This document shows positions 27,562 through 64,000 of a stretch of 64,000 nucleotides of DNA, piece by piece. This DNA comes from Bdellovibrionales bacterium (lineage in GTDB: Bacteria > Bdellovibrionota > Bdellovibrionia > Bdellovibrionales > UBA1609), in NCBI GenBank assembly GCA_965261545.1, contig CBDHDF010000007.1, positions 160,001 through 224,000 on the forward strand, read 5' to 3'. Numbering within the stretch: position 1 is the stretch's first letter; every line of letters begins with the position of its first letter. Below the pieces are notes generated by a model. It was not told the origin of the DNA, did not search any database, and worked only from the letters and a program-made list of their open reading frames with translations. Both the position numbers and the translations under genes were made by a program.

Positions 27562-27991
27562 TGCCGCTCCTTTCGTTTGTGAGCCTTTTGAGCTCGGTTT
27601 TTGTGTGGATAAGTATAACAACTTAGACCACGATGAAAAGGGGCGGCACTTCCATGCCTCCAGAAGGATTTATAAATTTATAAAGTGATTGACGACTTAA
27701 ATAATTCTTCAGGAATAAATGGACTTCCGTCGATTTTGTTTCAAGAAGAACACTAAAGTGCCGATTGTTCTTAGAGCATTGTGCTCCTTTCGTTTGTGAG
27801 CCTTTTGAGCTCGGTTTTTGTGTGGATAAGTATAACAACTTAGACCACGATGAAAAGGGGCGGCACTTCCATGCCTCCAGAAGGATTTATAAATTTATAA
27901 AGTGATTGACGACTTAAATAATTCTTCAGGAATAAATGGACTTCCGTCGATTTTGTTTCAAGAAGAACACTAAAGTGCCGATTGTTCTTAG
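27558..27991. repeat. 217-bp tandem duplication of the IS1111 left end plus flank
   Basis: 27566-27774 repeated at 27783-27991. Confidence 0.9.
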
Positions 27992-47333: not shown

Positions 47334-50300
47334 TCATTGGGGAGTGACAGTGGCAGATCTAGAGATAAGACTGTTGCTATCAGAGCTATTCACCGCTCGT
47401 ACTTGAAAGGTGTAAAGTGTCCTATTGGTAAGAGAAGTCACCACGTAGTATGTTCCATTTCTTTGATTTGGAGCACTATTTGGAATATCCTCCCAACTTC
47501 CGTACCCTTGTGTACCTGCTGTTTTTTTTCGATACTGATGTTTTATAATGGGAAATCCACCATCACTTGTTGGCGGCTGCCAGGTTAAAAAAGTTCTGCC
47601 ATCTCTAGGGTTTGCAATGAGGTTACTAGGAGATGGGAAGGTTAAATTCTGGGTTGTTTCTGGTGTGACAGTTACACTGGAGGAATCGCTTTCATTGGTG
47701 ATAATATTCACCGCTCGCACTTGAAAGCTGTAGCGTGTTCCGTTGGTGAGAGAAGTCACCAGGTAGCTTATTCCATTGGATTCACTGGGAGCACTCATTG
47801 GAATATCCTCCCAATTTTCGTACTGTTGTGCATTTTCTTCTTTTTTTCGATACTGATGCTTTGTGATGTAATGTCCACCATCACTTATCGGAAGCTGCCA
47901 GGTTAAATAAGCTCCGCCATTTCTGGGGTTTGCGATGAGGTTTCTAGGAGGTGCTAAACTCTGGGTTGTCGCTGGTGTGACAGTTGCGCCGGAGGGACTG
48001 CTTTCATGAGTGCTATTCACTACTCGCACTTGAAAGCTGTAACGGGTCCCATTGGCGAGAGAAGTCACCCAGTGGCGTTGTCCATAGGATTCATTGGGAG
48101 CACTATTTGGAATATTCTTCCAACTTTCGTATTGCTGTGCACCTTCTGCTTTTCTTCGATACTGATGCTTTGTGATGGGAATTCCACCGTCACTTGTTGA
48201 CGGCTGCCAGGTTAAATAAGCTCCTTGATTCCGAGGGTTTGCGATGAGGTTTCTAGGAGATGCTAAACTCTGGATTGTTGCTGGTGTGACAGTTGCAACA
48301 TTGGAGGAACGACTTTCATTGGCGTTATTCACCGCTCGCACTTGGAAGTTATAAATCGTCCCGTTGGCGAGAGAAGTCACCAGGTAGCTTATTCCATTGG
48401 ATTCACTGGGAGTACTCGTTGGAATATTCTTCCAATTTCCGTACTGTTGTGCATTTTCTTCTTTTTTTCGATACTGATGCTTTGTGATGGAAATTCCACC
48501 GTCACTTGTTGACGGCCGCCAGGTTAAATAAGTTCCTTGATTCCGAGGGTTTGCAATGAGATGAGTGGGAGACGAAACAGCTAAACTCTGGGTTGTCGCT
48601 GGTGTGACAGTTGTAACATTGGAGGAACGGTTTTTATTGGCACTATTCACCGCTCGCACTTGGAAGTTATACATCGTCCCGTTGGCGAGAGAAGTCACCA
48701 AGTAGCTTATTCCATTGGATCCACGGGGAGCACTCGTTGGAATATTCTTCCAATTTCCGTACTGATGCTGTGCGCCTGTTGTTTTTTTTCGATACTGATG
48801 TCTTATGATGGAAAATCCACCATCACTTGTTGATGGCTGCCAGGTTAAATAAGCTCCTTGATTCCGAGGGTTTGCGATGAGGTTTCTAGGAGGTGCTAAA
48901 ATCTGAGTTGTCGCTGGTGTGACAGTTGCAACATTGGAGGAACGACTTTCATTGGCGTTCACCGCTCGCACTTGAACATTGTAGCGTGTCCCATTGGTGA
49001 GGGTCACCCAGTGGCGTTGTCCATTGGATTCATTGGGAGCACTATTTGGAATATCCTTCCAACTTTCGTATTGCTGTGCACCTGCTGCTTTTTTTCGATA
49101 CTGATGCTTTAATATGGGAGTTCCACCATCACTTATTGAAGGCTGCCAGGTTAAATAAGTTCCTTGATTCCGAGGGTTTGCGATGAGATGAGTTGGAGAT
49201 GAAAAGGCTAAACTCTGGGTTGTCACTGGGGTAACAGTTACACTGGAGGGATCGCTTTCATTGGCGTTATTCATCGCTCGCACTTGAACATGATAGCGTG
49301 TCCCATTGGTGAGAGAAGTCACCAGGTAGCGTATTCCATTGGATTCATTGGGAGCGCTCATTGGAATATTTTTCCAATTTCCGTATTGCTGTGCACCTGC
49401 TGCTTTTTTTCGATACTGATGTTTTATGATGGAGGATCCACCATCACTTATCGAAGGTTGCCAGGTTAAATAAGCTCCGCCATTTCTGGGGTTTGCGATG
49501 AGGTTTCTAGGAGGTGCTAAACTCTGGGTTGTCGCTGGTGTGACCGTTGTAACATTAGAAGAACGACTTTTATTATTGTCACCATTCATCGCTCGCACTT
49601 GAACATGATAATGTGTTCCATTGGTGAGGGTCACCCAGTGGCGTTGTCCATTGGATTCATTGGGAGCACTATTTGGAATATCCTTCCAACTTTCGTACTG
49701 CTGTGCACCTGCTGCTTTTTTTCGATACTGATGCTTTAATATGGGAGTTCCACCATCACTTATTGAAGGCTGCCAGGTTAAATAAGTTCCGCCATTTCTG
49801 GGGTTTGCGATGAGGTTTCTAGGAGGTGCTAAACTTTGGGTTGTCACTGGGGTAACAGTGACACTGGAGGGATCGCTTTCATTGGCGTTATTCATCGCTC
49901 GCACTTGAACATGGTAGCGTGTCCCATTGGTGAGAGAAGGTACTAGATAGCCTATTCCATTGGATTGATTGGGAGCACTATTTGGAATATCTTTCCAACT
50001 TCCGTACTGTTGTGCACCTGCTGCTTTTTTTCGATACTGATATTTTATAATGGGAATTCCACCGTCACTTATTGAAGACCGCCAGGTTAAATAGGCTTCA
50101 CCATCTCTAGGGTTTGCGATAAGGCTTCTAGGAGACCCTAAAATCTGGATTGTCGTTGGTGTGACAGTTGCAACATTGGTTGAACGATTCTTATTGGCAC
50201 TGTTTACTACTCGCACTTGAAAAGTGCAAGGCTGCCCATTGGTGAGAGGAGCGACAAAGTAGCGCATTCCATTGGATTGATTGGGAGCACTATTTGGAAT

Positions 50301-51194
50301 ATCTTTCCACCTTCCGTACTGTTGTGCACCTGCTGCTTTTTTTCGATACTGATGTTTTATAATGGGAACTCCACCGTCATTTATCGAAGACTGCCATGTT
50401 AAATAGGCTCCTTGGTTCCTAGGGTTTGCCATGAGGTTTCTAGGGAGTGCTAAACTTTGGGTTGTCGCGGGTGTGACAGTTGCAACATTGGAGGAGTGAC
50501 TTTCATTGGCGTTATTCACCGCTCGCACTTGAACATTGTAACGTGTCCCGTTGGTGAGAGAAGGTAGTACTAGATAGCCTATTCCATTGGATTGATTGGG
50601 AGCACTCATTGGAATATCTTCCCAACTTCCGTACTGCTGTACACCTTCTTCTTTTTTTCGATACTGATGCTTTGATATGGGAGTTCCACCGTTATTTACT
50701 GAAGGTTGCCAGGTTAAGTAAGCTCTTTGATTCCTAGGGTTTGCAATGAGGTTTCTAGGGGCTGAGGGGATGGTTGAAATTCGAGAGGTTGCATTTGGTG
50801 TCACTATGGTAGCATTCGAAGGAGTGCTTACAGTGCCAAAAGCATTCTCTCCCCGCACTTGAAAGTTGTAGCGTGTCTCGTTGGTGAGACCCATGACGGT
50901 GAATATTGCTTCATGAATGTCCCCGTAGGAACTGTTGGGAATATCCACCCAGCTTTCGTACACTTCTGATTCTACTTTTTTTCGATATTGATGTTTTGTA
51001 ATACTTTCTTTTTGATTACTAGTGGAAGTTCTCCAAGACAAAGTTGCCTGTCCATCTCCGGGTGCTGCCGTCAAGGTATATTTGATTTTTATCGGCTTCT
51101 CAGAAATGTAAGACTTGTCTTTACTACAACCCAAGCATAAAAAATATAAAAGTATAACAATAGATACACTAAAATTCTTTATTAAATTATTCAT
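47334..51194 (-). CDS. Lipoprotein with 12 fibronectin type III repeats
   Basis: LCLGC lipobox; ~102-aa unit PRNLIANP...YLTW...GG.PI.KHQYR...LTNGTRY.FQVRAVN. Confidence 0.9.
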   Translation of the reverse strand: MNNLIKNFSVSIVILLYFLCLGCSKDKSYISEKPIKIKYTLTAAPGDGQATLSWRTSTSNQKESITKHQYRKKVESEVYESWVDIPNSSYGDIHEAIFTVMGLTNETRYNFQVRGENAFGTVSTPSNATIVTPNATSRISTIPSAPRNLIANPRNQRAYLTWQPSVNNGGTPISKHQYRKKEEGVQQYGSWEDIPMSAPNQSNGIGYLVLPSLTNGTRYNVQVRAVNNANESHSSNVATVTPATTQSLALPRNLMANPRNQGAYLTWQSSINDGGVPIIKHQYRKKAAGAQQYGRWKDIPNSAPNQSNGMRYFVAPLTNGQPCTFQVRVVNSANKNRSTNVATVTPTTIQILGSPRSLIANPRDGEAYLTWRSSISDGGIPIIKYQYRKKAAGAQQYGSWKDIPNSAPNQSNGIGYLVPSLTNGTRYHVQVRAMNNANESDPSSVTVTPVTTQSLAPPRNLIANPRNGGTYLTWQPSISDGGTPILKHQYRKKAAGAQQYESWKDIPNSAPNESNGQRHWVTLTNGTHYHVQVRAMNGDNNKSRSSNVTTVTPATTQSLAPPRNLIANPRNGGAYLTWQPSISDGGSSIIKHQYRKKAAGAQQYGNWKNIPMSAPNESNGIRYLVTSLTNGTRYHVQVRAMNNANESDPSSVTVTPVTTQSLAFSSPTHLIANPRNQGTYLTWQPSISDGGTPILKHQYRKKAAGAQQYESWKDIPNSAPNESNGQRHWVTLTNGTRYNVQVRAVNANESRSSNVATVTPATTQILAPPRNLIANPRNQGAYLTWQPSTSDGGFSIIRHQYRKKTTGAQHQYGNWKNIPTSAPRGSNGISYLVTSLANGTMYNFQVRAVNSANKNRSSNVTTVTPATTQSLAVSSPTHLIANPRNQGTYLTWRPSTSDGGISITKHQYRKKEENAQQYGNWKNIPTSTPSESNGISYLVTSLANGTIYNFQVRAVNNANESRSSNVATVTPATIQSLASPRNLIANPRNQGAYLTWQPSTSDGGIPITKHQYRRKAEGAQQYESWKNIPNSAPNESYGQRHWVTSLANGTRYSFQVRVVNSTHESSPSGATVTPATTQSLAPPRNLIANPRNGGAYLTWQLPISDGGHYITKHQYRKKEENAQQYENWEDIPMSAPSESNGISYLVTSLTNGTRYSFQVRAVNIITNESDSSSVTVTPETTQNLTFPSPSNLIANPRDGRTFLTWQPPTSDGGFPIIKHQYRKKTAGTQGYGSWEDIPNSAPNQRNGTYYVVTSLTNRTLYTFQVRAVNSSDSNSLISRSATVTPQ

Positions 51195-51541
51195 GATTTT
51201 AACTCCTAGCCTATATACCTTTGTAGTAATATCTGAATCATCTTTTTCTCGTTTGTTAAATTTTAAGACTTCTCATCAAAAATCGTCTCAATTTCATTAC
51301 TCGGCCATAAGTTAAGTAAACTTTAGAGCGTGTCCTTTGACTAAGCGCATCCAACCTGGAAAAACCAAAAACAGAACCAAAATCTAGGATGATAAAAAAG
51401 GTTGTTATGACACCAAAAATGGCCGGAAATTATGGAGGTTCACGACTCCCAGTCGCAGATCAAATCATCAAAGGAGTTACGTACCTGAATTCCCCAGCGT
51501 TTTGAAAAAGAAGATTTTTCTCAACTAAAAATTATCGTAAC

Positions 51542-51940
51542 ATTCATGGGGGCGCCTTGCTTCCCCACCCACGCCCATGAATCTTTCTAGGCCCCCACTT
51601 CTTTGCACGAAGCAACTCGGTGGACAGCTTCGCTGGTCTATATAATTGGCCTCTTTTAGTTACTCTGGACTTTTGATGGTATTTTTGTCATGTATGATTC
51701 CGATACAATAAAGGATAAAGCAATAACATTATTGGAAGGTGATAAGATGAGTGGCCGTTGAATAGATTGGTAATTTTAATTCCGTGAAGTAACATGGTCT
51801 TGAGCTTTGGATCGAACCCACGCATGTACCTGCACTCTGAGTGTATGGACGTATAGTAAGTTGACCTATTTTCGCTTTAGAATTTATGGCAAAATCCCAA
51901 GGCTCTAGTTTTATCACCTTCTTTTTTTCTAACAGAAAGG
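51542..51940 (+). ncRNA. Candidate bridge RNA in the IS110 left non-coding end
   Basis: ~400-nt non-coding region upstream of the recombinase; internal loop holding TGAATAG and GTAAC, which match the IS66 TIR; transcript boundaries unknown. Confidence 0.6.
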
Positions 51941-51949
51941 AGGAGTCAT

Positions 51950-53150
51950 GTGGATATTATTTATAGTTCTGTTTGTGGAATAGATGTTCATCAACATATG
52001 TTGATGTGTACGATTGTCAAAGTGGAAGACGGTAAGAAGAAGTTTTTCACAAAAGAGTTCAAGAATTTTCCAAAAAATTTTCCTAGAATGCGCTCTTGGA
52101 TGAAGCCACATAAGGTTGAGAGAGTTCTTTTTGAGAGCACAGGGATTTATTGGAATTCTTTATACGATGATTTGACAGAAAAAGGTTATGAAGTAGATGT
52201 TATCAATGCCTTTCATGTCAAAAATATTACTGGTAAAAAAACTGACGTGTTGGATAGCCAGTGGATTGCAGAGCTTGGTGCTTGTGGTCTTCTAAGAGCT
52301 AGCTTCATTCCTCCACGTGAGATTCGTTCTATTAGACTTTTGGCTCGTTATCGTACAAAAACGATCCGCCAAATATCTTCGGAACAAAATCGTATGTATA
52401 AGGTTCTTGAATATTCAGGCATTCGTTTAACCTATGCAATGTCTAAAGCTGACTGCGTATCTGGTATGGCCATGATTCGTGCCATAGCTAATGGAGAGAG
52501 ATCAGTTTCTAAATTGATGTCTCTTGCCAGAGGGTCTTTACGTCAAAAGACCGAAGAATTTTCTTACGCCCTGTCGGGAAAGATGACGGAAGAAAATCGT
52601 TTTGTTCTTCAACGCATTCTTGATCGAATAGATTTTTTGAAAAAAGAATGCTCTCAAATTGAAGAAGAACTTTTCATTCGTATGAAACCCTATGAAAGGC
52701 AGTGGCATCTACTCCAGACTATACCTGGAATTGACGAATTAAGTGCAGCGCTTTTGATTGCAGAAATAGGAGGCAATGTGAAGTCTTTTAAAAATAAAGG
52801 AAATTTTTGCTCCTGGATGGGGATTTGCCCATCCAATAATGAGAGCGCAGGAAAAAAAGTCTTCACGAACGAGGAAAGCGAACACATATGTGAAATCGTT
52901 GGTATGTGAGATGGCCAATAGTGCTATTAAGACGAATTCACAATTCAAAGGCAAATACCAATCACTTGTTATAAGGCGTGGGCACAAGAGATCAGTGATT
53001 GCCGTTGGTCACAAAATGATGGGAGTTGTTTATTCAGTCATAAGTAATGACACCCCCTACAAAGACCCTGGAATTGACTATGAAAAGCTCATGGTGAAAA
53101 AAAATGCACCAAGGTGGATTAGAGCGTTAAAAAAGTATGATTTCATGTAA
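51950..53150 (+). pseudogene. IS110 recombinase, frameshifted at an A7 run (52852-52858)
   Basis: GIDVHQ, FESTG, KTDVLDS, IPGID, PSNNESAG; C-terminus SSRTRKAN is in another frame. Confidence 0.85.
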
Positions 53151-53238
53151 TGTAGGATGATTTAAAAACTCGGACATTTGAAAAAATTCGAAGAACGGAT
53201 AGTGGATTCGTGCGTCCAAACTACCCCGGAGATTCATA

Positions 53239-54953
53239 GTAACTATTCAGGGTGTGCCGCATTAATTCGAACAATTTTTTTAAAAAAAGTATAAAAATTC
53301 TTGACAAGTTTTTGAAGCAAACGACCTCTTTCATTTGTTCTTTATCGAATATGTTCCTGCATATGCCTTAAACTCTCTGAGAGCCATAGTATTGAAAGAT
53401 TGTGAAACATAGGTCGCGGGGGGCACTTCTCATTCCTTTTGCTTCTTAGAACGAATCCTAGTGCATTTTTTTTAATGAAAAAAAGGCATGTTAATATTTT
53501 CATAAGGTAAGTATGAAAATAGAAAATATTGACGTGTCTTCAGCCATAAATAAAATCAGGAAGCTTCTTAAGAAAGAGAAGTCCCTTTCTCCCGCTTTTA
53601 TTGTGGCCATTGAGTTGTTGATCAAAATCATCACTATTCTAGTAAATCAAAAAAAATTAAATAGTCAAAACAGTAGTATTGCCCCTTCTCAAGATCCGAA
53701 TGGCCCTAAAAAGAAACCTAAGGAAGAAACTGGTAAGAAGCCAGGAGGACAACCCGGACACGAAGGAGCTACTTTAAAACCCGTGGATACTCCAGACAAG
53801 GTGGAGTTCATTTCTATTAATAAAGAGGAACTTCCTCCAGGTGATTACATTTCTTCTGGAGTTGAAAAGCGTCAAGTATTTGAGGTAGACCTTTCTGTGC
53901 ATGTCACGGAGTATCAAGGAGAAATCCTCGAAGACCAAGATGGGAATCAGTGGGTTGCAGGTTTTCCAGAAGGAATCAATAACCCAACTCAATATGGCCC
54001 TTCTGTGAAAGCTCACTCAGTTTATATGTCCCAGTTTCAGTTAATCCCTCATCTTCGAGTCGCAAGTTACTTTAATCAATGGGGTCTATCGCTTGCTGGA
54101 TCTACGGTACACAATTTTAACAAATCTGCCTTTGAGGCTCTGGAAGCTTTTGAGGAGTGGGCAAAGGAAACTCTTCTGAACTCACCTTTGATTCATGCTG
54201 ACGAAACTGGAGTGAATGTTAATGGGAAGAGGCTGTGGTTTCACCTCTTGTCCAATGATACTGTGGTTCTCTATCAGGTGGACGAAAAAAGAGGCGCAGA
54301 GGCTATGGATCGCATGGGAATTCTTCCAAAATACACAGGGATTGTTTGTCATGACCATTGGAAACCTTATTATACATATACTTCCTGCATTCATGCCCTT
54401 TGCAATGCGCACCATTTAAGGGAGCTTCAAAGAGCTTGGGAGCAAGATGATCAAAAATGGGCAAAAGAAATGAAGTCTCTTTTAGAGACAATAAACAAAG
54501 AGGTGCACGATACGCAGAACCAATGCCTTTCACAAGACCGAATTGAATATTACAAAGAGAAATATCGAAATATTCTCTTCGAAGGGGAAAAGGAATCTCC
54601 ATTAATGGAGAGGACAGAGAAAAAAAAGAAGGGAAAGGTTAAACAATCCAAATCTAGAAATTTACTAGATCGACTGAGAAACTTTGAAGATGATACCTTG
54701 CTATTTATGAAGGACCCCATAGTTCCATTTACGAATAATATAGCAGAAAATGATCTGAGAATGACCAAAGTTCAGCAGAAAATATCTGGGTGCTTTCGTT
54801 CGTTGATGGGAGCCAAGACATTTTGTAGAAACCGAAGCTTTCTCCTGACTTGCCAGAAAAATGGCATAGAACCTAAAGATGCTCTAAATATGCTATTTCA
54901 AGGAAAACTTCCCTCATTTATGACTCGAATTCGCCCACCCCCTGAATAGTTAC
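53239..54953 (+). mobile_element. IS66-family element (TnpC only, ISBst12-like)
   Basis: TIRs GTAACTATTCAGGGTGTG and CACCCCCTGAATAGTTAC; 8-bp TSD AAATTATC displaced to 51529-51536 and 56662-56669. Confidence 0.92.
53513..54949 (+). CDS. IS66 transposase TnpC
   Basis: NSQNSSIAPSQD, PGGQPGH, HADETG, CNAHHLREL, PFTNNIAENDLR, KISGCFRS. Confidence 0.95.
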   Translation: MKIENIDVSSAINKIRKLLKKEKSLSPAFIVAIELLIKIITILVNQKKLNSQNSSIAPSQDPNGPKKKPKEETGKKPGGQPGHEGATLKPVDTPDKVEFISINKEELPPGDYISSGVEKRQVFEVDLSVHVTEYQGEILEDQDGNQWVAGFPEGINNPTQYGPSVKAHSVYMSQFQLIPHLRVASYFNQWGLSLAGSTVHNFNKSAFEALEAFEEWAKETLLNSPLIHADETGVNVNGKRLWFHLLSNDTVVLYQVDEKRGAEAMDRMGILPKYTGIVCHDHWKPYYTYTSCIHALCNAHHLRELQRAWEQDDQKWAKEMKSLLETINKEVHDTQNQCLSQDRIEYYKEKYRNILFEGEKESPLMERTEKKKKGKVKQSKSRNLLDRLRNFEDDTLLFMKDPIVPFTNNIAENDLRMTKVQQKISGCFRSLMGAKTFCRNRSFLLTCQKNGIEPKDALNMLFQGKLPSFMTRIRPPPE

Positions 54954-56661
54954 TATGAATCTCCGGGGTAGTTTGGACGCACGAATCCACTATCCGTTCT
55001 TCGAATTTTTTCAAATGTCCGAGTTTTTAAATCATCCTACATTACATGAAATCATACTTTTTTAACGCTCTAATCCACCTTGGTGCATTTTTTTTCACCA
55101 TGAGCTTTTCATAGTCAATTCCAGGGTCTTTGTAGGGGGTGTCATTACTTATGACTGAATAAACAACTCCCATCATTTTGTGACCAACGGCAATCACTGA
55201 TCTCTTGTGCCCACGCCTTATAACAAGTGATTGGTATTTGCCTTTGAATTGTGAATTCGTCTTAATAGCACTATTGGCCATCTCACATACCAACGATTTC
55301 ACATATGTGTTCGCTTTCCTCGTTCGTGAAGACTTTTTTTTCCTGCGCTCTCATTATTGGATGGGCAAATCCCCATCCAGGAGCAAAAATTTCCTTTATT
55401 TTTAAAAGACTTCACATTGCCTCCTATTTCTGCAATCAAAAGCGCTGCACTTAATTCGTCAATTCCAGGTATAGTCTGGAGTAGATGCCACTGCCTTTCA
55501 TAGGGTTTCATACGAATGAAAAGTTCTTCTTCAATTTGAGAGCATTCTTTTTTCAAAAAATCTATTCGATCAAGAATGCGTTGAAGAACAAAACAATTTT
55601 CTTCCGTCATCTTTCCCGACAGGGCGTAAGAAAATTCTTCGGTCTTTTGACGTAAAGACCCTCTGGCAAGAGACATCAATTTAGAAACTGATCTCTCTCC
55701 ATTAGCTATGGCACGAATCATGGCCATACCAGATACGCAGTCAGCTTTAGACATTGCATAGGTTAAACGAATGCCTGAATATTCAAGAACCTTATACATA
55801 CGATTTTGTTCCGAAGATATTTGGCGGATCGTTTTTGTACGATAACGAGCCAAAAGTCTAATAGAACGAATCTCACGTGGAGGAATGAAGCTAGCTCTTA
55901 GAAGACCACAAGCACCAAGCTCTGCAATCCACTGGCTATCCAACACGTCAGTTTTTTTACCAGTAATATTTTTGACATGAAAGGCATTGATAACATCTAC
56001 TTCATAACCTTTTTCTGTCAAATCATCGTATAAAGAATTCCAATAAATCCATCCCTGTGCTCTCAAAAAGAACTCTCTCAACCTTATGTGGCTTCATCCA
56101 AGAGCGCATTCTAGGAAAATTTTTTGGAAAATTCTTGAACTCTTTTGTGAAAAACTTCTTCTTACCGTCTTCCACTTTGACAATCGTACACATCAACATA
56201 TGTTGATGAACATCTATTCCACAAACAGAACTATAAATAATATCCACATGACTCCTCCTTTCTGTTAGAAAAAAAGAAGGTGATAAAACTAGAGCCTTGG
56301 GATTTTGCCATAAATTCTAAAGCGAAAATAGGTCAACTTACTATACGTCCATACACTCAGAGTGCAGGTACATGCGTGGGTTCGATCCAAAGCTCAAGAC
56401 CATGTTACTTCACGGAATTAAAATTACCAATCTATTCAACGGCCACTCATCTTATCACCTTCCAATAATGTTATTGCTTTATCCTTTATTGTATCGGAAT
56501 CATACATGACAAAAATACCATCAAAAGTCCAGAGTAACTAAAAGAGGCCAATTATATAGACCAGCGAAGCTGTCCACCGAGTTGCTTCGTGCAAAGAAGT
56601 GGGGGCCTAGATAAGATTCATGGGCGTGGGTGGGGAAGCAAGGCGCCCCCATGAATGTTAC
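54954..56661 (-). mobile_element. IS110-family element, copy B, inserted at the right TIR of IS66
   Basis: Reverse complement of copy A. Confidence 0.9.
55042..56247 (-). pseudogene. IS110 recombinase, copy B, with two frameshifts
   Basis: 4-bp GGAT duplication near 56050 and an A8 run near 55334-55341. Confidence 0.85.
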
Positions 56662-57139
56662 AAATTATCAAGAATAAAATATTATCAAAGTGGAATTATT
56701 CAATAGTTCCATCCTAAATTGAATTGTGAATTGTTCAACTTATTTTGACACACCTCCTTAGTTTTGGACCTAGTTCAAACTCTGGGGAATTCAATTACGT
56801 AACAAAGCAAGTTTCATATATAAATATACAAATGAGACAAGCACAAGAGACGTGATCTTTATTGAGACAAAATCAATTTTTACTAGACTTTGGTAGAATC
56901 CCTTAGTATCCTTAAAATTAAGAAGCAGCATGATAAAGATTAAGAAATATATATAAGAATACGAAACCAATAAGAATTACGAAATAAAATTAAAGACTCC
57001 ATGGACCGAAGGCTTTGACGAGTGGCCTAAGGGTCCTAGCAAAAGAAGAGAAGCGGCACAAGGAAGTGCTAAAGTAGAACGTATATGCAAAAGGAGGTGG
57101 CACGAAAAAATAAAGCTAACTTCGGGCAATTCCTTTCTT

Positions 57140-59801: not shown

Positions 59802-61950
59802 TAGTTCCTGTCCAGGGAAGAAAGTTAAGTAGTTTTAAGTATTTACATGCCTTCCCTTTAGATTTTATGCTTTAAAATGGAGTCCATCAAACATAATCCG
59901 TGTAAATTCAGTTACTTACATAAAACGGAAAAATAAAATAAGTTCCCCCCCCTCTCTTGACGAACCTTTCACAGCCCCTCCCTTTCAGTGACTTATGTGG
60001 CTATCAACTGGTTACTTGATATGAGAGGAAGAGTTGGATCAACCTGTGTTTCCACCGTGGTGATTTCAAACCTCCTTCAGGGAAATAACATTACGTTGCG
60101 CATCAACTTCAAAAAATACTTGACGTGTTTTTTCAGAGAAATAATTTTTGATATTTTATTCTTCATTTATTTTTTATGTAGGTTTTAGGAGGCGTGGGAA
60201 CCTCTCTATGAGGTAGAATTCTTATCCATGTTCTCCGAGAACCTCTCTGATTTTTTTCTTCTTAAAAGACATCCTTGCTCACTTTTTTCCCTCAAAAAAA
60301 CGTATGTTAATATAAAAATTAAAGAGAAACTTTCACCAAAGGGGGGACTATGCGCCATTTGAAGAAGACACAGTTGGGACTCTTTTCCCAATATCCTAAC
60401 CACCAACTCAGTACAGAATTGCAGCAAATTAATAACATCATTGATCGCCATCCAGAGTTTGCCCATATGGTTCATGAAGACCTTGTTAAAGAAAAGAAAG
60501 ATTCTGGTGATATTGGTATGACATCGGAGCAAGTTCTCAAGGTGGCTATTCTTAAATCCATAAGAGGTCTTTCCTATCGTGCGTTAGCCTTTAATCTTGT
60601 CGATTCAGTATCCACCAGAGCTTTTCTGGGCCTTGAATTGGAAGAAAATTACGCTCACTCCACCTTACAGGACTTGATTGTTCAAATAAGTGAAGAAACT
60701 TGGGGAATTATTAGCGCCTCTTTAGTTTCAGATGCAAGAGATCAAAAGATTGAGCCGTGTAAGAAAATGAGATTGGACAGTACAGTGACGAAATCAAATA
60801 TTCATCATCCAACGGATGCATCGCTTTTATATGACTGCATAAGAGTTACAGAAAGAGAATTTAAAAAAGTTCGTAAAAATGTCATGAAAGATTTTTGGCG
60901 ACTTATTTCAAGAGAAGATCTTAAGAGAGCAAAAACCTTGCTTTACAAAATTAATAATTCCAAAAATGATGCGGAAAGACTACCTTGCTATAAGGAGCTT
61001 TTAAAAATCGCTACCAAATTGAACAAAGGATTACCTGATACCATCAGAAAGATAAAAAAAGAACAAAAATGTGTGAAGATGAATGCTTTGAAAAAGAGTC
61101 TAAAACAGTTAGAAAATGTTGCCTTCTACCTGGAAAAAATCATCTTTCAAACTCAAAAAAGAGTTATTGAGGGGAAAAAAGTATCTTCTGAAAAAAAGGT
61201 CCTATCCATCTTTGAACCGCATACAGACATTATTGTAAAGGGGCAAAGAGAAGTCGAGTTTGGGCATAAAATCTTTCTGACCTCAGGGCAAAGCAACATG
61301 ATTTTAGATTGTCAGATCCCTGATGGCAACCCCGCAGACTCTGATATGTTTTTAAAAGTTATGAATTCAGTGACACAAACCTATGGGGCTTGCCCTGTAA
61401 AAGTAAGTGCAGATGGTGGGTTTGCTTCAAAAGAAAATCTTGAAGAGGCCAAAGAGATGGGGGCTAAAGATGTTTGCTTCCCAGAAAAAAAAGGAATGAA
61501 AATATTAAAGATGGTTAAAAGTGCTTGGGTCTTTAAAAATCTTCTCAATTGGAGAGCCGGAATAGAGGCTGTTATTTCATTCCTTAAGAGATGTTTTGGT
61601 ATGAGAGTTGCTTACTGGAAAGGGCATGATGGTTTTAAGAGGTATGTAAAGAATGCCGTTTGTGCCTATAATTTTGTTGTCTTGGCAAGACATGAATTAT
61701 CAACTGTCACCTAAATTTATCCATTAGGAATAACAGCAATGGACCAGGTCGAAGGTGCTAAAATCTTCCAAAGGTAGGGGTGCGTCTTCAAATCGAAAAA
61801 ACTAGGGCGCAAGTCGCTTAAAGACCTTTTTCCCCTTAATCTGTAGAGTTTGTGTGGCAAATCTCCAACTCTCACTCCCCCATTGAGGCATTGGGAGGCT
61901 CAATGGGGAGTGTCAGAGAACAAAAAATGGGCCTTTCTGGACAGAAACTA
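59802..61950 (+). mobile_element. ISNCY (ISDol1-like) or IS5-related element, no TSD
   Basis: IRs TAGTTCCTGTCCAG and CTGGACAGAAACTA. Confidence 0.75.
60350..61714 (+). CDS. DDE transposase
   Basis: RLDSTV..NIHHPTD, SIFEPH, EFGHK, ADGGF, RAGIEAVISFLKR. Confidence 0.92.
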   Translation: MRHLKKTQLGLFSQYPNHQLSTELQQINNIIDRHPEFAHMVHEDLVKEKKDSGDIGMTSEQVLKVAILKSIRGLSYRALAFNLVDSVSTRAFLGLELEENYAHSTLQDLIVQISEETWGIISASLVSDARDQKIEPCKKMRLDSTVTKSNIHHPTDASLLYDCIRVTEREFKKVRKNVMKDFWRLISREDLKRAKTLLYKINNSKNDAERLPCYKELLKIATKLNKGLPDTIRKIKKEQKCVKMNALKKSLKQLENVAFYLEKIIFQTQKRVIEGKKVSSEKKVLSIFEPHTDIIVKGQREVEFGHKIFLTSGQSNMILDCQIPDGNPADSDMFLKVMNSVTQTYGACPVKVSADGGFASKENLEEAKEMGAKDVCFPEKKGMKILKMVKSAWVFKNLLNWRAGIEAVISFLKRCFGMRVAYWKGHDGFKRYVKNAVCAYNFVVLARHELSTVT

Positions 61951-62013
61951 AATATGCTATTTCAAGGAAAACTTCCCTCATTTATGACTCGAATTCGCCC
62001 ACCCCCTGAATAG
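61951..62013 (+). mobile_element. 63-bp remnant of the IS66 right end
   Basis: Matches 54887-54949 and stops 4 bp short of the terminus. Confidence 0.9.
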
Positions 62014-62318
62014 TGTTAGGCGCCAATTAAAATTGGCCATTTTTAGAAGCCGTCGCCAATGAAAAACGGCCAGTTGATGATGTACTGATTTAGTTATTCT
62101 TCGTTCAGAGTTTAGTCAAGTGTCTTTATTTTGCTCATCATTTAACTCGGACTATGCCACAAGATTCTGAGGAATGATTTTCTGCCCACCACTTTTGGCA
62201 TGACCCCAAATGCATCCTTCAGCCCTATGGCAGAGGTAAATGGAGTATTTTTCAGGATTCCTTGGCGCAGCTAATGTCTAAAGCTCCGCGAGAGTGACGA
62301 GCAAATAGTACGGTAAAA

Positions 62319-62416
62319 GCCAGTTATCCATAAATTTATCCATGGCGACACTGCGGCTGTGACCCCGATGTCTAGCAACGCAGTGCTGCTGTGGATAAAT
62401 TTTGTGGATAACTGGC
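62319..62416. repeat. DnaA-box-like palindrome, copy 3
   Basis: GCCAGTTATCCATA...TGTGGATAACTGGC. Confidence 0.85.
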
Positions 62417-62443
62417 GAGTTCCTTCCCCAAAAGTGGGGATCT

Positions 62444-63178
62444 CTAATGAACTTCTTTGGTTGAACTTTCCTCTTTGCTCTGTTTAGACTTGGCTTTTGC
62501 CGATTCGGTTCTCCAACTTTCTTTTCCTTCAATGTTGAGGGTTTCACAGTTGTGAATGATTCGATCAACAGCAGCAGCGGTGGTAATAGGGTTAAGAAAC
62601 ACCTTATCCCATTCAGAGTATGTTAAGTTTGTAGTGATCATGAGACTTTTCCTTTCATATCGCTGAGATATGAATTGAAAGAAAAGATCTGCCCCCTCTG
62701 TGCAGGAAGCTGTATAGCCAAGTTCATCACAAGCAATAAGATCAAAACGGTCTAATTTCTTAAAAAGAGCATTCAATGAGAGTTCTTTCTTGCTTTCACG
62801 CATTGTTTCAATAAGTTCATGAGTGGTGACCCATAAACATCGATAGCCTTGTTCACAGAGTGAACGAACTAGGGACATGGCCAAATGACTTTTCCCCATT
62901 CCAAAGCTTCCGTAAAACACAACATTACAGGCTTTTCTGACCCACTCTCCCTCTGCCATCCAATTAATTTGCTGAGCTGTCACTCCCGTTCTTTTCTGGA
63001 AGTTATAAGTTTGGAGTGATTTAAGTTGAGGAAGCTTGGCCCCCTTAAGCAATCTTTTCACTCTCTGGGAATGCTTGTCAGCAAGCTCATTTTGAACGAG
63101 TATACCTAAATACTGTTCATACGTCTTTTTTGTTTTTTCGGCAACTCTAGCCGTTGCAACATATTCATCCGCCACGAA
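62444..63178 (-). pseudogene. istB: IstB ATPase with its N-terminus cut by a further insertion
   Basis: GSFGMGKS, ACDELGY, AAVDRIIH; no istA upstream, and an oppositely oriented transposase lies there instead. Confidence 0.75.
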
Positions 63179-63447
63179 TTGGGTCAAAAATAACGACACC
63201 AAGACGCATCACATTAAAACACCTTCGTGGTGCCCGGGTTATGGTCCTCCACCTGGCTGGCTCATTATTCCGACACCGAGTTCCCACTTTTCTCTTTTTG
63301 AGTCAAAAATGTGCGTTGAGGAGACTCCCTCACTCAATAAGACACCGGTTGTTACGCCTTCTAAAACAGATCAGCCGAGCTACCCCTCTGTTGATCCTCT
63401 CAGTAAGATTGATCTTTGGAAACAAACAATCAACGAGGGGGTCTTCA

Positions 63448-64000
63448 GTGAGGGAGTCGGCTGTTAATGCTTACTTAACTGCAATTTCAGGCTTATATCA
63501 ACAAAGTTCTAAGGCTAAAAAAGGGGAGTTGCTAGATCATGCGGAACTGGTCACAAACCTCTCTAGGAAGCGACTCATAAGGAGATTAAACGAGATTCAA
63601 CAAAATAATGGCTCTGTGCCACTCAAGCGGTCAGGGAGGCCTCTGGCTTATTCTCAAGAGGAGTTACGACCCCACATCAAATATTTGTGGGAACAAATGG
63701 AAAAAATCTCGGCTGTACGAATAAAAGCCGCTCTACCGGATTGGCTCCCCAATTATGAGTCGTGTCCTCCCCACTTAAAGCTTCAGTTAGAAAAAATGAG
63801 TGCCAGCACCTTGAAGCGTTATCTGAAGGAAATTCGCTTGGCTTCATTGGTCTCTAAGGGATTGTCCACAACCTGTCCTGCCCAATATATGAAAAATAAG
63901 GTTCCCATCAATACACTGGACTCCAAGGTCACAAGGCCTGGTTATATACAAACAGATACGGTTGCTCACTGTGGAACGAGTGCCCAAGGCCCTTTTATCA
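63448..64000 (+). CDS. Integrase-core transposase (ISNCY/ISLbi1-like), runs off the window
   Basis: GTG 63448 after GAGGGG; YQQSSKAKKGELLD, SRKRLIRRL, MSASTLKRYL, PGYIQTDTVAHCG; upstream TCA...GACACC repeats at ~63184, ~63262, ~63335. Confidence 0.8.
   Translation, partial: MRESAVNAYLTAISGLYQQSSKAKKGELLDHAELVTNLSRKRLIRRLNEIQQNNGSVPLKRSGRPLAYSQEELRPHIKYLWEQMEKISAVRIKAALPDWLPNYESCPPHLKLQLEKMSASTLKRYLKEIRLASLVSKGLSTTCPAQYMKNKVPINTLDSKVTRPGYIQTDTVAHCGTSAQGPFI

Follow-up and report, generated by a model that had tools for sequence, protein, structure and literature searches.

A single-gene IS66 element capped by two inverted copies of an IS110 element, with an 8-bp duplication outside the pair, occupies positions 51529..56669 of the window, by which we mean the whole 64,000-nucleotide stretch of Bdellovibrionales DNA that was analyzed. 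We put a probability of roughly 85% on the reading that IS66 arrived first and that IS110 was then guided by a bridge RNA into each of its terminal repeats, in two independent events that rebuilt the target. Such a unit would be a well-replicated natural example of one insertion sequence parasitizing another under RNA guidance, and the one genome offers 36 scorable target sites together with near-miss controls.

The arrangement described in an earlier note on this DNA (duplication, GTAAC and GTTAC junctions, inverted IS110 pair, inner IS66) is confirmed in the sequence, with the duplication, AAATTATC, placed outside the whole unit at 51529..51536 and 56662..56669 (no strand). GTAAC lies at 51537–41 and 53239–43, and GTTAC at 54949–53 and 56657–61. 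IS110 copy A (51541..53240, + strand; 1,700 bp plus one AA core) and the inverted copy B (54952..56657, – strand) are 99.6% identical, differing at four places, and flank an IS66 of 1,715 bp with a single gene (53239..54953, +). Each IS66 terminal repeat is complete, with its outermost 2 bp supplied by an IS110 right end, and the note's claim that they are regenerated intact holds at the sequence level. The bases at 51537..51540 (+) are probably the first 4 bp of the original IS66 left repeat, which the insertion would have left on the outside, and those at 56658..56661 (–) probably the outer 4 bp of the original right repeat; the order proposed in that note, with IS66 first and each end struck separately afterward, is likewise the one we favor.

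The inner element is assigned to IS66 by PF03050 (169 bits) and NF033517 (285 bits, cut-off 180), and its transposase is an open frame of 478 amino acids (53513..54949, +) with a stop codon that ends one base before the right core. It has the features of the ISBst12 group, namely one transposase gene, GTAA-type terminal repeats and an 8-bp duplication, and four uncapped IS66 copies each have an 8-bp duplication of their own. The outer elements are assigned to IS110 by PF01548, PF02371 and NF033542 (245 bits for an intact copy), all above cut-off. Both recombinase genes in the window are broken, that of copy A (51950..53150, +) by a frameshift in a run of seven A at 52852–58, where intact copies have nine A and a 400-aa product, and that of copy B (55042..56247, –) by a 4-bp duplication and a run of eight A. 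These frameshifts fall after S299 or earlier; intact copies are found elsewhere in the genome, and their 400-aa protein conserves the DEDD RuvC-type and Tnp serine residues D12, E62, D99, D102 and S299.

We give next to no weight to the idea that repeats were misassembled into this structure. No contig spans the compared stretch from 51200 to 54945 (the left IS110 and IS66), no single record covers the complete unit, pieces that cross a junction do not satisfy a 31-base rule, and three of the four sequencing runs compared represent one sample, possibly the source; however, two unique flanks are joined by an exact 8-bp duplication, copies A and B can be told apart by their four differences, three further double-hit units have their own duplications, and a contig in run X3 links an IS110 right end to an IS66 end.

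The target is an 11-mer corresponding to the first 11 bp of the IS66 repeat, and reads as GT, the core AA and CTATTCA. The IS110 right end is present at 16 of the 36 exact GTAACTATTCA sites in the genome, whereas the other GTAA sites, about 25,400 in number, carry 26 junctions, of which 12 are onto IS110's own left end; such repetition excludes chance. In all 18 IS110 arrays that have an outer right end, this end lies on the IS66 terminal repeat or a near match, as the earlier note had proposed: 16 at an exact 11-mer, one at an IS66 end that an IS21-type element has since split, and one at a site with a single mismatch. The flank predicted there to follow the right end is found at array outer ends (17 of 18 on the 11-mer), but not at 19 of the 37 right ends: 10 of these abut the left end of the element itself, six an internal site in another copy, and three the upstream flank. 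Related ends with an altered core or guide position are nearly unused, with 0/15, 0/13, 0/21, 1/15 and 1/4 occupied, although several of those counted belong to copies inside one repeated element. A comparison of 17 hit and 18 free flanks shows no visible preference in the sequence beyond the IS66 end.

As 33 of the 36 exact 11-mers are IS66-type ends, sequence and element are nearly confounded, and IS110 might in principle be targeted by a protein contact, such as one that recruits it to the end of IS66 or to the IS66 transposase, with any RNA match being incidental. We regard this as highly improbable, given that one of the three exact sites outside IS66 is occupied, that near-identical IS66-type ends with one changed base go unused, and that the predicted guides follow the junctions in relatives with other targets.

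Among 13 IS66 units, four are hit at both ends, five at one and four at neither, where 3.25, 6.5 and 3.25 would be expected, and in nine units the IS110 left end(s) have an 8-bp duplication on their outer side. None of the capped units was seen again elsewhere in the genome. The double hits fit independent events, such that a special mechanism for striking both ends is unneeded and the double hit at the same nucleotide and in the same relative orientation, which the note had singled out, does not call for one. The opposite orientation of the two IS110 copies follows from the inversion of the IS66 repeats. No flipped IS66, which the note thought the inverted pair might produce, was seen, the comparison with sequencing runs covering the left IS110 and the IS66. 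Large inversions split two of the double-hit units; in the one examined, the break lies at an IS21-type insertion inside IS66 and not at the IS110 pair.

Exchange appears to take place at a 2-bp core, AA (51539–40 at the left end), with no target duplication of IS110's own. In all eight off-guide junction types, AA precedes the joint, the bases farther out vary, and only AA is held in common, which rules out a 5-bp GTAAC core; the GTAAC junction that had been taken as shared is really this AA together with a GT and a C present by coincidence in both donor and target. Because the donor supplies the same GT as it displaces, both the IS66 repeat and the 11-bp target are rebuilt, and rebuilding of the target in turn explains the ten tandem IS110 junctions, in which neighbors differ in sequence in at least four of the ten pairs. 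Insertion of IS110 is said to destroy the target; a landing site that renews itself is an exception to this, and offers a simple way of building tandem stacks. We note that circle-junction PCR is not diagnostic in this genome, since the ten chromosomal tandem junctions would also give product, and that a sigma-70 promoter scan of the circle junction (as found in a tandem copy) detected none.

A bridge RNA with two guide loops is predicted from an alignment of 21 sequences in the left end of copy A (51753..51866, +), and that of copy B (56331..56444, –) is identical. Changes on both sides are seen at 10 of the 17 stem pairs in this alignment; RNAalifold recovers two of the five helices, single-sequence folding did not give the proposed structure (z = –0.28), and a search of Rfam returned no match for the predicted RNA. 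One putative target guide of 7 nt (51759..51765, +) is complementary to positions 5–11 of the IS66 repeat, while the other (51784..51795, +) ends in GTAA, positions 1–4 of the repeat, after which comes a handshake-like segment of 3 nt that is identical to the first bases of the IS110 left end. A guide RNA matching the target, as the earlier note anticipated, is thus predicted in the left end, where it would spell out the IS66 11-mer. In the donor loop, one guide (51851..51859, +) matches the right end plus core, and the 5′ guide (51816..51824, +) matches a left-end motif (51567..51575, +) at eight of nine bases in the same sense, without a match beside the core.

Three of these four predicted guides covary with the junctions beside the core in relatives 33–48% identical, and the fourth has no match there; these relatives are kin, so that permutation p-values overstate the case. 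The donor guide against right end and core scores 4.95 of 5, compared to 3.66 when permuted (n = 19), and the 7-nt target guide, which carries a one-base mismatch at the core, shows moderate covariation (2.45 compared to 1.65 of 6; n = 11, best of six registers). The 5′ donor guide does not rise above permuted values beside the core at any of five shifts. Against the inner left-end motif it scores 7.46 of 9 compared to 6.61 permuted (n = 28), with no advantage for the same match in a nearest-neighbor swap (6 wins, 18 ties, 4 losses).

The non-coding DNA around the IS110 gene measures 409 bp on the left and about 90 bp on the right, the left end being lengthened by a 65-bp piece (51619..51683, +) about 95% shared with a multi-copy IS256-type element. 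A left sub-terminal inverted repeat, ATGAATCT (51577..51584, +), 36 bp inside the core, pairs with AGATTCAT (53230..53237, +), which lies 3 bp from the core at the right end, and both sides of this 8–9-bp repeat change together in the 18 elements listed.

The IS110 left end also resembles the left repeat of IS66, sharing 14 of 20 positions with it, and a 51-bp unit of the left-end hairpin, with ends matching the IS66 left and right repeats at 14/20 each, is flanked by 8-bp duplications at three loci, two of them clean and the third an imperfect repeated locus. The whole 5.1-kb unit could then have arrived together, cut by IS66 transposase at the IS66-like left ends of IS110, with the duplication stemming from that move; indeed, the duplication by itself cannot distinguish the two orders of events. 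Nevertheless, we consider this improbable: capped IS66 units, when compared by eye, all differ from one another in their IS110 and IS66 variants, and the 51-bp units may instead be deletion scars of double-hit units, formed via a 9–12-bp direct repeat. Furthermore, the left-end layout is common to the clade, including relatives at 39–48% identity, with 10 of 16 positions beyond the core matching the IS66 repeat here and 3–9 in 28 relatives. In light of the same layout in those relatives, we also rejected a captured IS66 miniature as the main origin of the left end. A broader proposal, which we hold only tentatively and think rather unlikely, is that this clade has a mirror-image bridge RNA with a split donor, the 5′ donor guide reading about 27 bp inside the left end, and a left end turned into a working IS66 end that lets IS66 transposase carry capped units and 51-bp miniatures; the parasite would then both rebuild and replace the ends of its host element.

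In the reading we prefer, IS66 would insert first, giving the 8-bp duplication. A bridge RNA expressed from the IS110 left end would then direct the recombinase, supplied in trans by intact IS110 copies elsewhere in the genome, to the first 11 bp of the IS66 repeat, and one copy would enter each terminal repeat in two independent events. Exchange catalyzed at AA would leave GTAA outside and join the IS110 right end, ending in GT, to the remainder of the repeat, and with the full repeat and full 11-bp target restored, later copies could stack at the same point.

Among related genomes, 13 of 61 and 3 of 384 gave matches, none a close relative with DNA (best other at 35%), and 49 plasmid records matched, all under 60% (best 41%); proteins 65–80% identical to the recombinase are found as sequences without DNA. 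No report of an IS66-end target was evident from titles or the beginnings of abstracts in the literature on IS110 with IS66 or the ends of other elements, and IS66 goes unmentioned in the main texts of PMC11208160, PMC11187229 and 10.64898/2026.08.14.744561, as well as in the searchable supplements to PMC11208160 and PMC11187229. Homing of IS110-family elements on the ends of other elements is already known; an IS66 target and a self-renewing site were not found in the portions of the literature searched.

The precedent named in the earlier note, IS4321/IS5075, is the right one, in that an IS110-family element uses a terminal repeat as a fixed, oriented site. IS4321 and IS5075 leave the 38-bp repeat interrupted. 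As described in the available parts of PMC8269217, these IS1111-group elements (see also Partridge and Hall 2003) insert into Tn21-family terminal inverted repeats, with another element's repeat serving as safe harbor, and look-alike sites outside the transposon are also hit. In contrast to them, and within what those parts cover, our IS110 has an IS66-end target, an upstream non-coding region, a 400-aa protein and a fully rebuilt repeat.

The intact protein matches the DEDD and serine recombinase IS621 with E = 2.7e-15. The available text of PMC11208160 and PMC13626964 points to further likenesses to IS621: an RNA, here a predicted one, in a long left end with two loops, a 2-bp core, an 11-bp target read as 7 + 2 + 2, and handshake-like bases after the 3′ guides. 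Unlike IS621 as portrayed in that text, the IS110 here has the core AA, predicted guides in mirror order relative to the gene, sub-terminal repeats of 8–9 bp rather than 2–3 bp, and a 5′ donor guide without a match beside the core. ISEc21, of the IS110 group, is alike in its upstream non-coding region and in having another insertion sequence as target; according to the accessible part of PMC11187229, it targets DDE codons of IS3-family genes, with the top-strand match located 3′ of its bottom-strand counterpart. Here, the top-strand match lies 5′ of the bottom-strand match, which is the order given for IS1111 in that part of the paper.

As to the host element, the part of PMC12898284 available describes the ISBst12 group of IS66 (for example, ISDge4) as having a single gene, GTAAC-type ends and an 8-bp duplication, and makes no mention of IS110 at those ends. 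Tandem and half-match expansion of IS110 loci is covered by three preprints (bioRxiv 10.64898/2026.08.14.744561, 10.64898/2026.08.31.748434 and 10.1101/2025.10.25.684509), and their tandem modules, repeat units bounded by the left donor arm and direct single-junction transfer, so far as the accessible sections describe them, fit the six internal and three flank-duplicating junctions found here.

With respect to the two groups of the family, the long upstream non-coding region agrees with the IS110 group, whereas the 8–9-bp sub-terminal repeat departs from the absence of a long one in that group, and the guide order of IS621 and ISEc21 (bottom-strand guide 5′, top-strand 3′) is reversed when the gene strand is taken as top. 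The IS1111 group differs in having its non-coding region downstream, proteins of 330–350 rather than 400 aa, and repeats of 11–13 bp at distances of 7 bp (left end) and 3 bp (right end), as opposed to 8 bp with the left copy 36 bp inside. The 400 aa fall within the 395–455 aa range of the subgroup around IS110 itself. The right sub-terminal repeat, at 3 bp from the core, agrees with IS1111-group spacing. The predicted RNA of this clade would combine an IS110-group position with an IS1111-group guide order, with one donor guide lacking its expected partner, and if this is true, the donor-reprogramming rules for these 400-aa recombinases differ from those of IS621.

The capped IS66 unit of the window (G000:C7:160001-224000, that is, contig C7 of genome assembly G000) has exactly the layout claimed in the earlier note, with an 8-bp duplication (51529-36 and 56662-69) outside the whole unit and, within it, an IS110 on the plus strand (copy A, 51541-53240), a 1,715 bp IS66 (53239-54953) and an inverted IS110 (copy B, 54952-56657), both families being assigned with Pfam and NCBIfam. 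Copies A and B differ at four places, and the recombinase genes of both are broken. The inner IS66 has a single open gene of 478 aa, the stop codon of which ends 1 base before the right core and is intact after insertion, and each of four uncapped IS66 copies in the genome has an 8-bp duplication of its own; the ISBst12 group, as described in PMC12898284, fits such a single-gene IS66. We note that mobile DNA is abundant in the window, which also carries an additional DDE transposase gene (PF01609; 60350-61714, +), an exact 209 bp tandem duplication (27566-27991), and a gene for a 1,286-aa protein made up almost entirely of fibronectin type III repeats (47334-51194, -; 12 repeats of ~312 bp), the start of which lies 335 bp from the composite.

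The earlier note also predicted that the same IS66-type flank would follow the right ends of other copies, and a genome-wide tabulation of the 37 full-element right ends bore this out for the outer ends but not for the remainder. GTAACTATTCAG directly follows 15 of them (14 at ends of the window-type IS66 and one at another IS66-type end), while three more abut, respectively, an IS66 end that an IS21-type element later interrupted, an exact 11-mer (the first 11 bp of the IS66-type end) outside any IS66, and a site with a single mismatch. Together, these 18 form the outer ends of every array; the other 19 are array-internal, with 10 joined to the left end of the element itself, six on internal sites of another copy, and three on upstream flank. 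Counted by site, 16 of 36 exact GTAACTATTCA sites are occupied (15/33 IS66-type ends and 1/3 others), and the ~25,400 other GTAA sites hold 26 junctions (full element and miniature together), 12 of these onto the left end. IS66-type ends with 1-2 base differences are scarcely used (0/15, 0/13, 0/21, 1/15, and 1/4), although several of these are copies inside one repeated element and thus not independent, and none of the 21 GTAACTGCTCG ends of a second IS66-family element carries the IS110. This second element (protein 33-41% identical) occurs at G000:C11 579098-580888, C7 148572-150112, and elsewhere. At window 61948-64000 (G000:C7 221948-226771), an IS21-type element (IstB gene, 62444-63202) flanked by a 5-bp duplication interrupts the right end of another IS66; the outer remnant of that end bears an array of three IS110 copies, and the corresponding left part of the IS66 is on contig C11.

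The junctions themselves indicate that the recombination core is AA, because in 8/8 off-guide junction types the partner DNA shares only AA immediately before the joint, with variable bases further out, and because one nested insertion reads TTAAC at its left and GTAAC at its right. The shared junction had earlier been taken to be GTAAC; the repeat is indeed rebuilt, but the core is just AA. The full repeat is restored because the IS110 right end, like that of many relatives, has GT before the core and the IS66 end begins with GT, such that exchange at AA would leave GTAA outside and rebuild the inside repeat in full. The same coincidence would also restore the whole 11-bp target, and stacking is therefore predicted. 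Ten tandem junctions were found, and at least four neighbor pairs within tandems differ in sequence, three of these differences involving the unstable A-run of the recombinase gene. Tandems could possibly be made by copy-out or recombination, processes treated in 10.1101/2025.10.25.684509; the differing neighbors fit separate insertions.

Target choice appears to be encoded in a predicted bridge RNA (51753-51866). Two scans yielded 159 related loci (33-48% identity), 41 upstream regions of which fitted a profile, leaving 29 once partial and near-identical ones were dropped; junctions were set from end motifs, independently of the guides, with two hand-set entries (the target of the window element and the mis-called right end of relative L125). 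With p-values that are inflated by kinship among the relatives, slot 51851-59 matched the right end at 4.95 of 5 positions versus 3.66 when permuted (n = 19; p = 0.0002), slot 51784-92 matched the left flank at 2.38 of 3 versus 1.48 (n = 21; p = 0.0002), the 3 bases after that slot matched the start of the left end at 2.05 versus 1.40 (n = 21; p = 0.0002), and slot 51759-65, 3 bases before the inner stem, was complementary to the right flank at 2.75 of 6 versus 1.71 (n = 12), or at 2.45 versus 1.65 without the window element (n = 11, p = 0.0016, best of six registers), its peak being one register off in aligned columns. Read together, the two target slots of the window IS110 give the first 11 bp of the IS66 end except for a single mismatched core position, following the same 7 + 2 + 2 reading of an 11-bp target as IS621, and the 3 bases after slot 51784-92 resemble handshake guides as presented in PMC13626964. 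A five-helix structure drawn from a 21-sequence alignment has 88.5% paired cells versus 79.8% when shuffled, with 10/17 pairs changed on both sides, as judged on the same alignment to which it was fitted; RNAalifold recovered two of the five helices, and the lone window RNA sequence folds otherwise, without yielding this structure.

The layout departs from that of IS621. If the gene strand is taken as top, the top-strand guide lies 5' of the bottom-strand guide, which is the order given for IS1111 in PMC11187229, although here the RNA precedes the gene. Each end also has one arm of an inverted repeat of 8-9 bp, and the two arms vary in concert; the right arm is 3 bp from its core, and the left arm (51577-84) lies ~36 bp inside the left core. 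In the donor loop, the 5' slot (51816-24) shows no match to core-adjacent DNA; its agreement, in the same orientation, is with the 9-mer just before the left repeat (51567-75), at 7.46 of 9 positions versus 6.61 when permuted (n = 28), with 8 of 9 in the window IS110 versus 5 for its nearest relative, and in nearest-neighbor swaps the true pairing won 6 times, tied 18 times, and lost 4 times. This is only suggestive of the slot reading the inner left-end 9-mer, and PMC11208160 has a figure with six diverse bridge RNAs that may already show this RNA layout. Past the core, the left end agrees with the IS66 repeat at 10/16 positions versus 3-9 in 28 relatives, on which basis mimicry of the IS66 end is not established. 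The left end is 409 bp long versus 254-353 bp in 28 relatives, and 65 bp of it (51619-51683) are common to a multi-copy IS256-type element.

Pairing by 8-bp duplication gave 13 IS66 units in a hand-compiled list omitting unpairable pieces (e.g., C1 23341, C2 467752, C7 389891, and C11 790238), with four double-capped, five single, and four uncapped, against 3.25, 6.5, and 3.25 expected from independent hits (Fisher p = 0.56). Besides the window unit, those capped at both ends are C7 343399-351652 and two units that inversions later split. Because comparison by eye found a different set of variants in every capped unit, each most probably formed where it now lies, and the opposite orientation of the IS110 pair would follow from an asymmetric target within inverted repeats. 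Five sequencing runs contain the stretch, none of them recorded as RNA and four of them from one sample, which may be the source. When contigs of four runs were compared with 51200-54945 (left IS110 and IS66), one started in the unique left flank and reached 28 bases into the IS110 left end, one joined an IS110 right end to an IS66 end, another, which came from a second study, crossed an IS110 right end by <31 bases, and none spanned the whole interval. Among 35 genome copies, the recombinase A-run has 7 A in 18, 9 A in 14, and 8 A in three; copy A (52852-52858) is of the 7-A frameshifted class, and 9-A full-length copies encode 400 aa with D12, E62, D99, D102, and S299. Since three relatives (65-80% identity) have 314-317 aa, the length given by the frameshift, the A-run may be especially prone to slippage or else a place where the assembly is unreliable.

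One-sided events also occur: where a right end was joined to an internal AA or to one upstream, short duplications and repeated flank-plus-element units arose, the latter at G000:C7 226760-232573 and 311413-314881 (tandem units with flank segments of ~345 bp and 52 bp, bounded by a junction of the right end with AA upstream). A gene-less miniature of ~105 bp (C6 3544-3652, C3 20865, C10 576454, C11 725851, C2 233621, and C2 289234) combines the IS110 left end with a variant right end, is likewise found in front of IS66-type ends, and has a sub-terminal repeat differing from that of the full element on both sides together. Finally, a 51-bp unit consisting of the left-end hairpin is flanked by 8-bp duplications, cleanly at two loci (C2 618569-618619 and C6 99928) and imperfectly at one repeated locus (C2 345417-383719, 7 copies), and may be either the collapse scar of a double hit or an IS66 transposase substrate, that is, an IS66-moved miniature.

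Across the literature searched, which comprised mainly open-access articles and preprints and did not extend to ISfinder, no report of an IS110 directed at IS66 came up. Homing on the terminal repeat of another element is established for IS4321/IS5075 (PMC8269217), in agreement with the precedent that had been proposed, and ISEc21 homes on the gene of another IS according to PMC11187229. The one-sided junctions are consistent with the half-match and tandem expansion of IS110 described in 10.64898/2026.08.14.744561, 10.64898/2026.08.31.748434, and 10.1101/2025.10.25.684509. IS110 capping of IS66 ends is a real, well-replicated variant of known behavior, and its distinct points, judging from the sequences compared here, would be the renewed target and the RNA layout.
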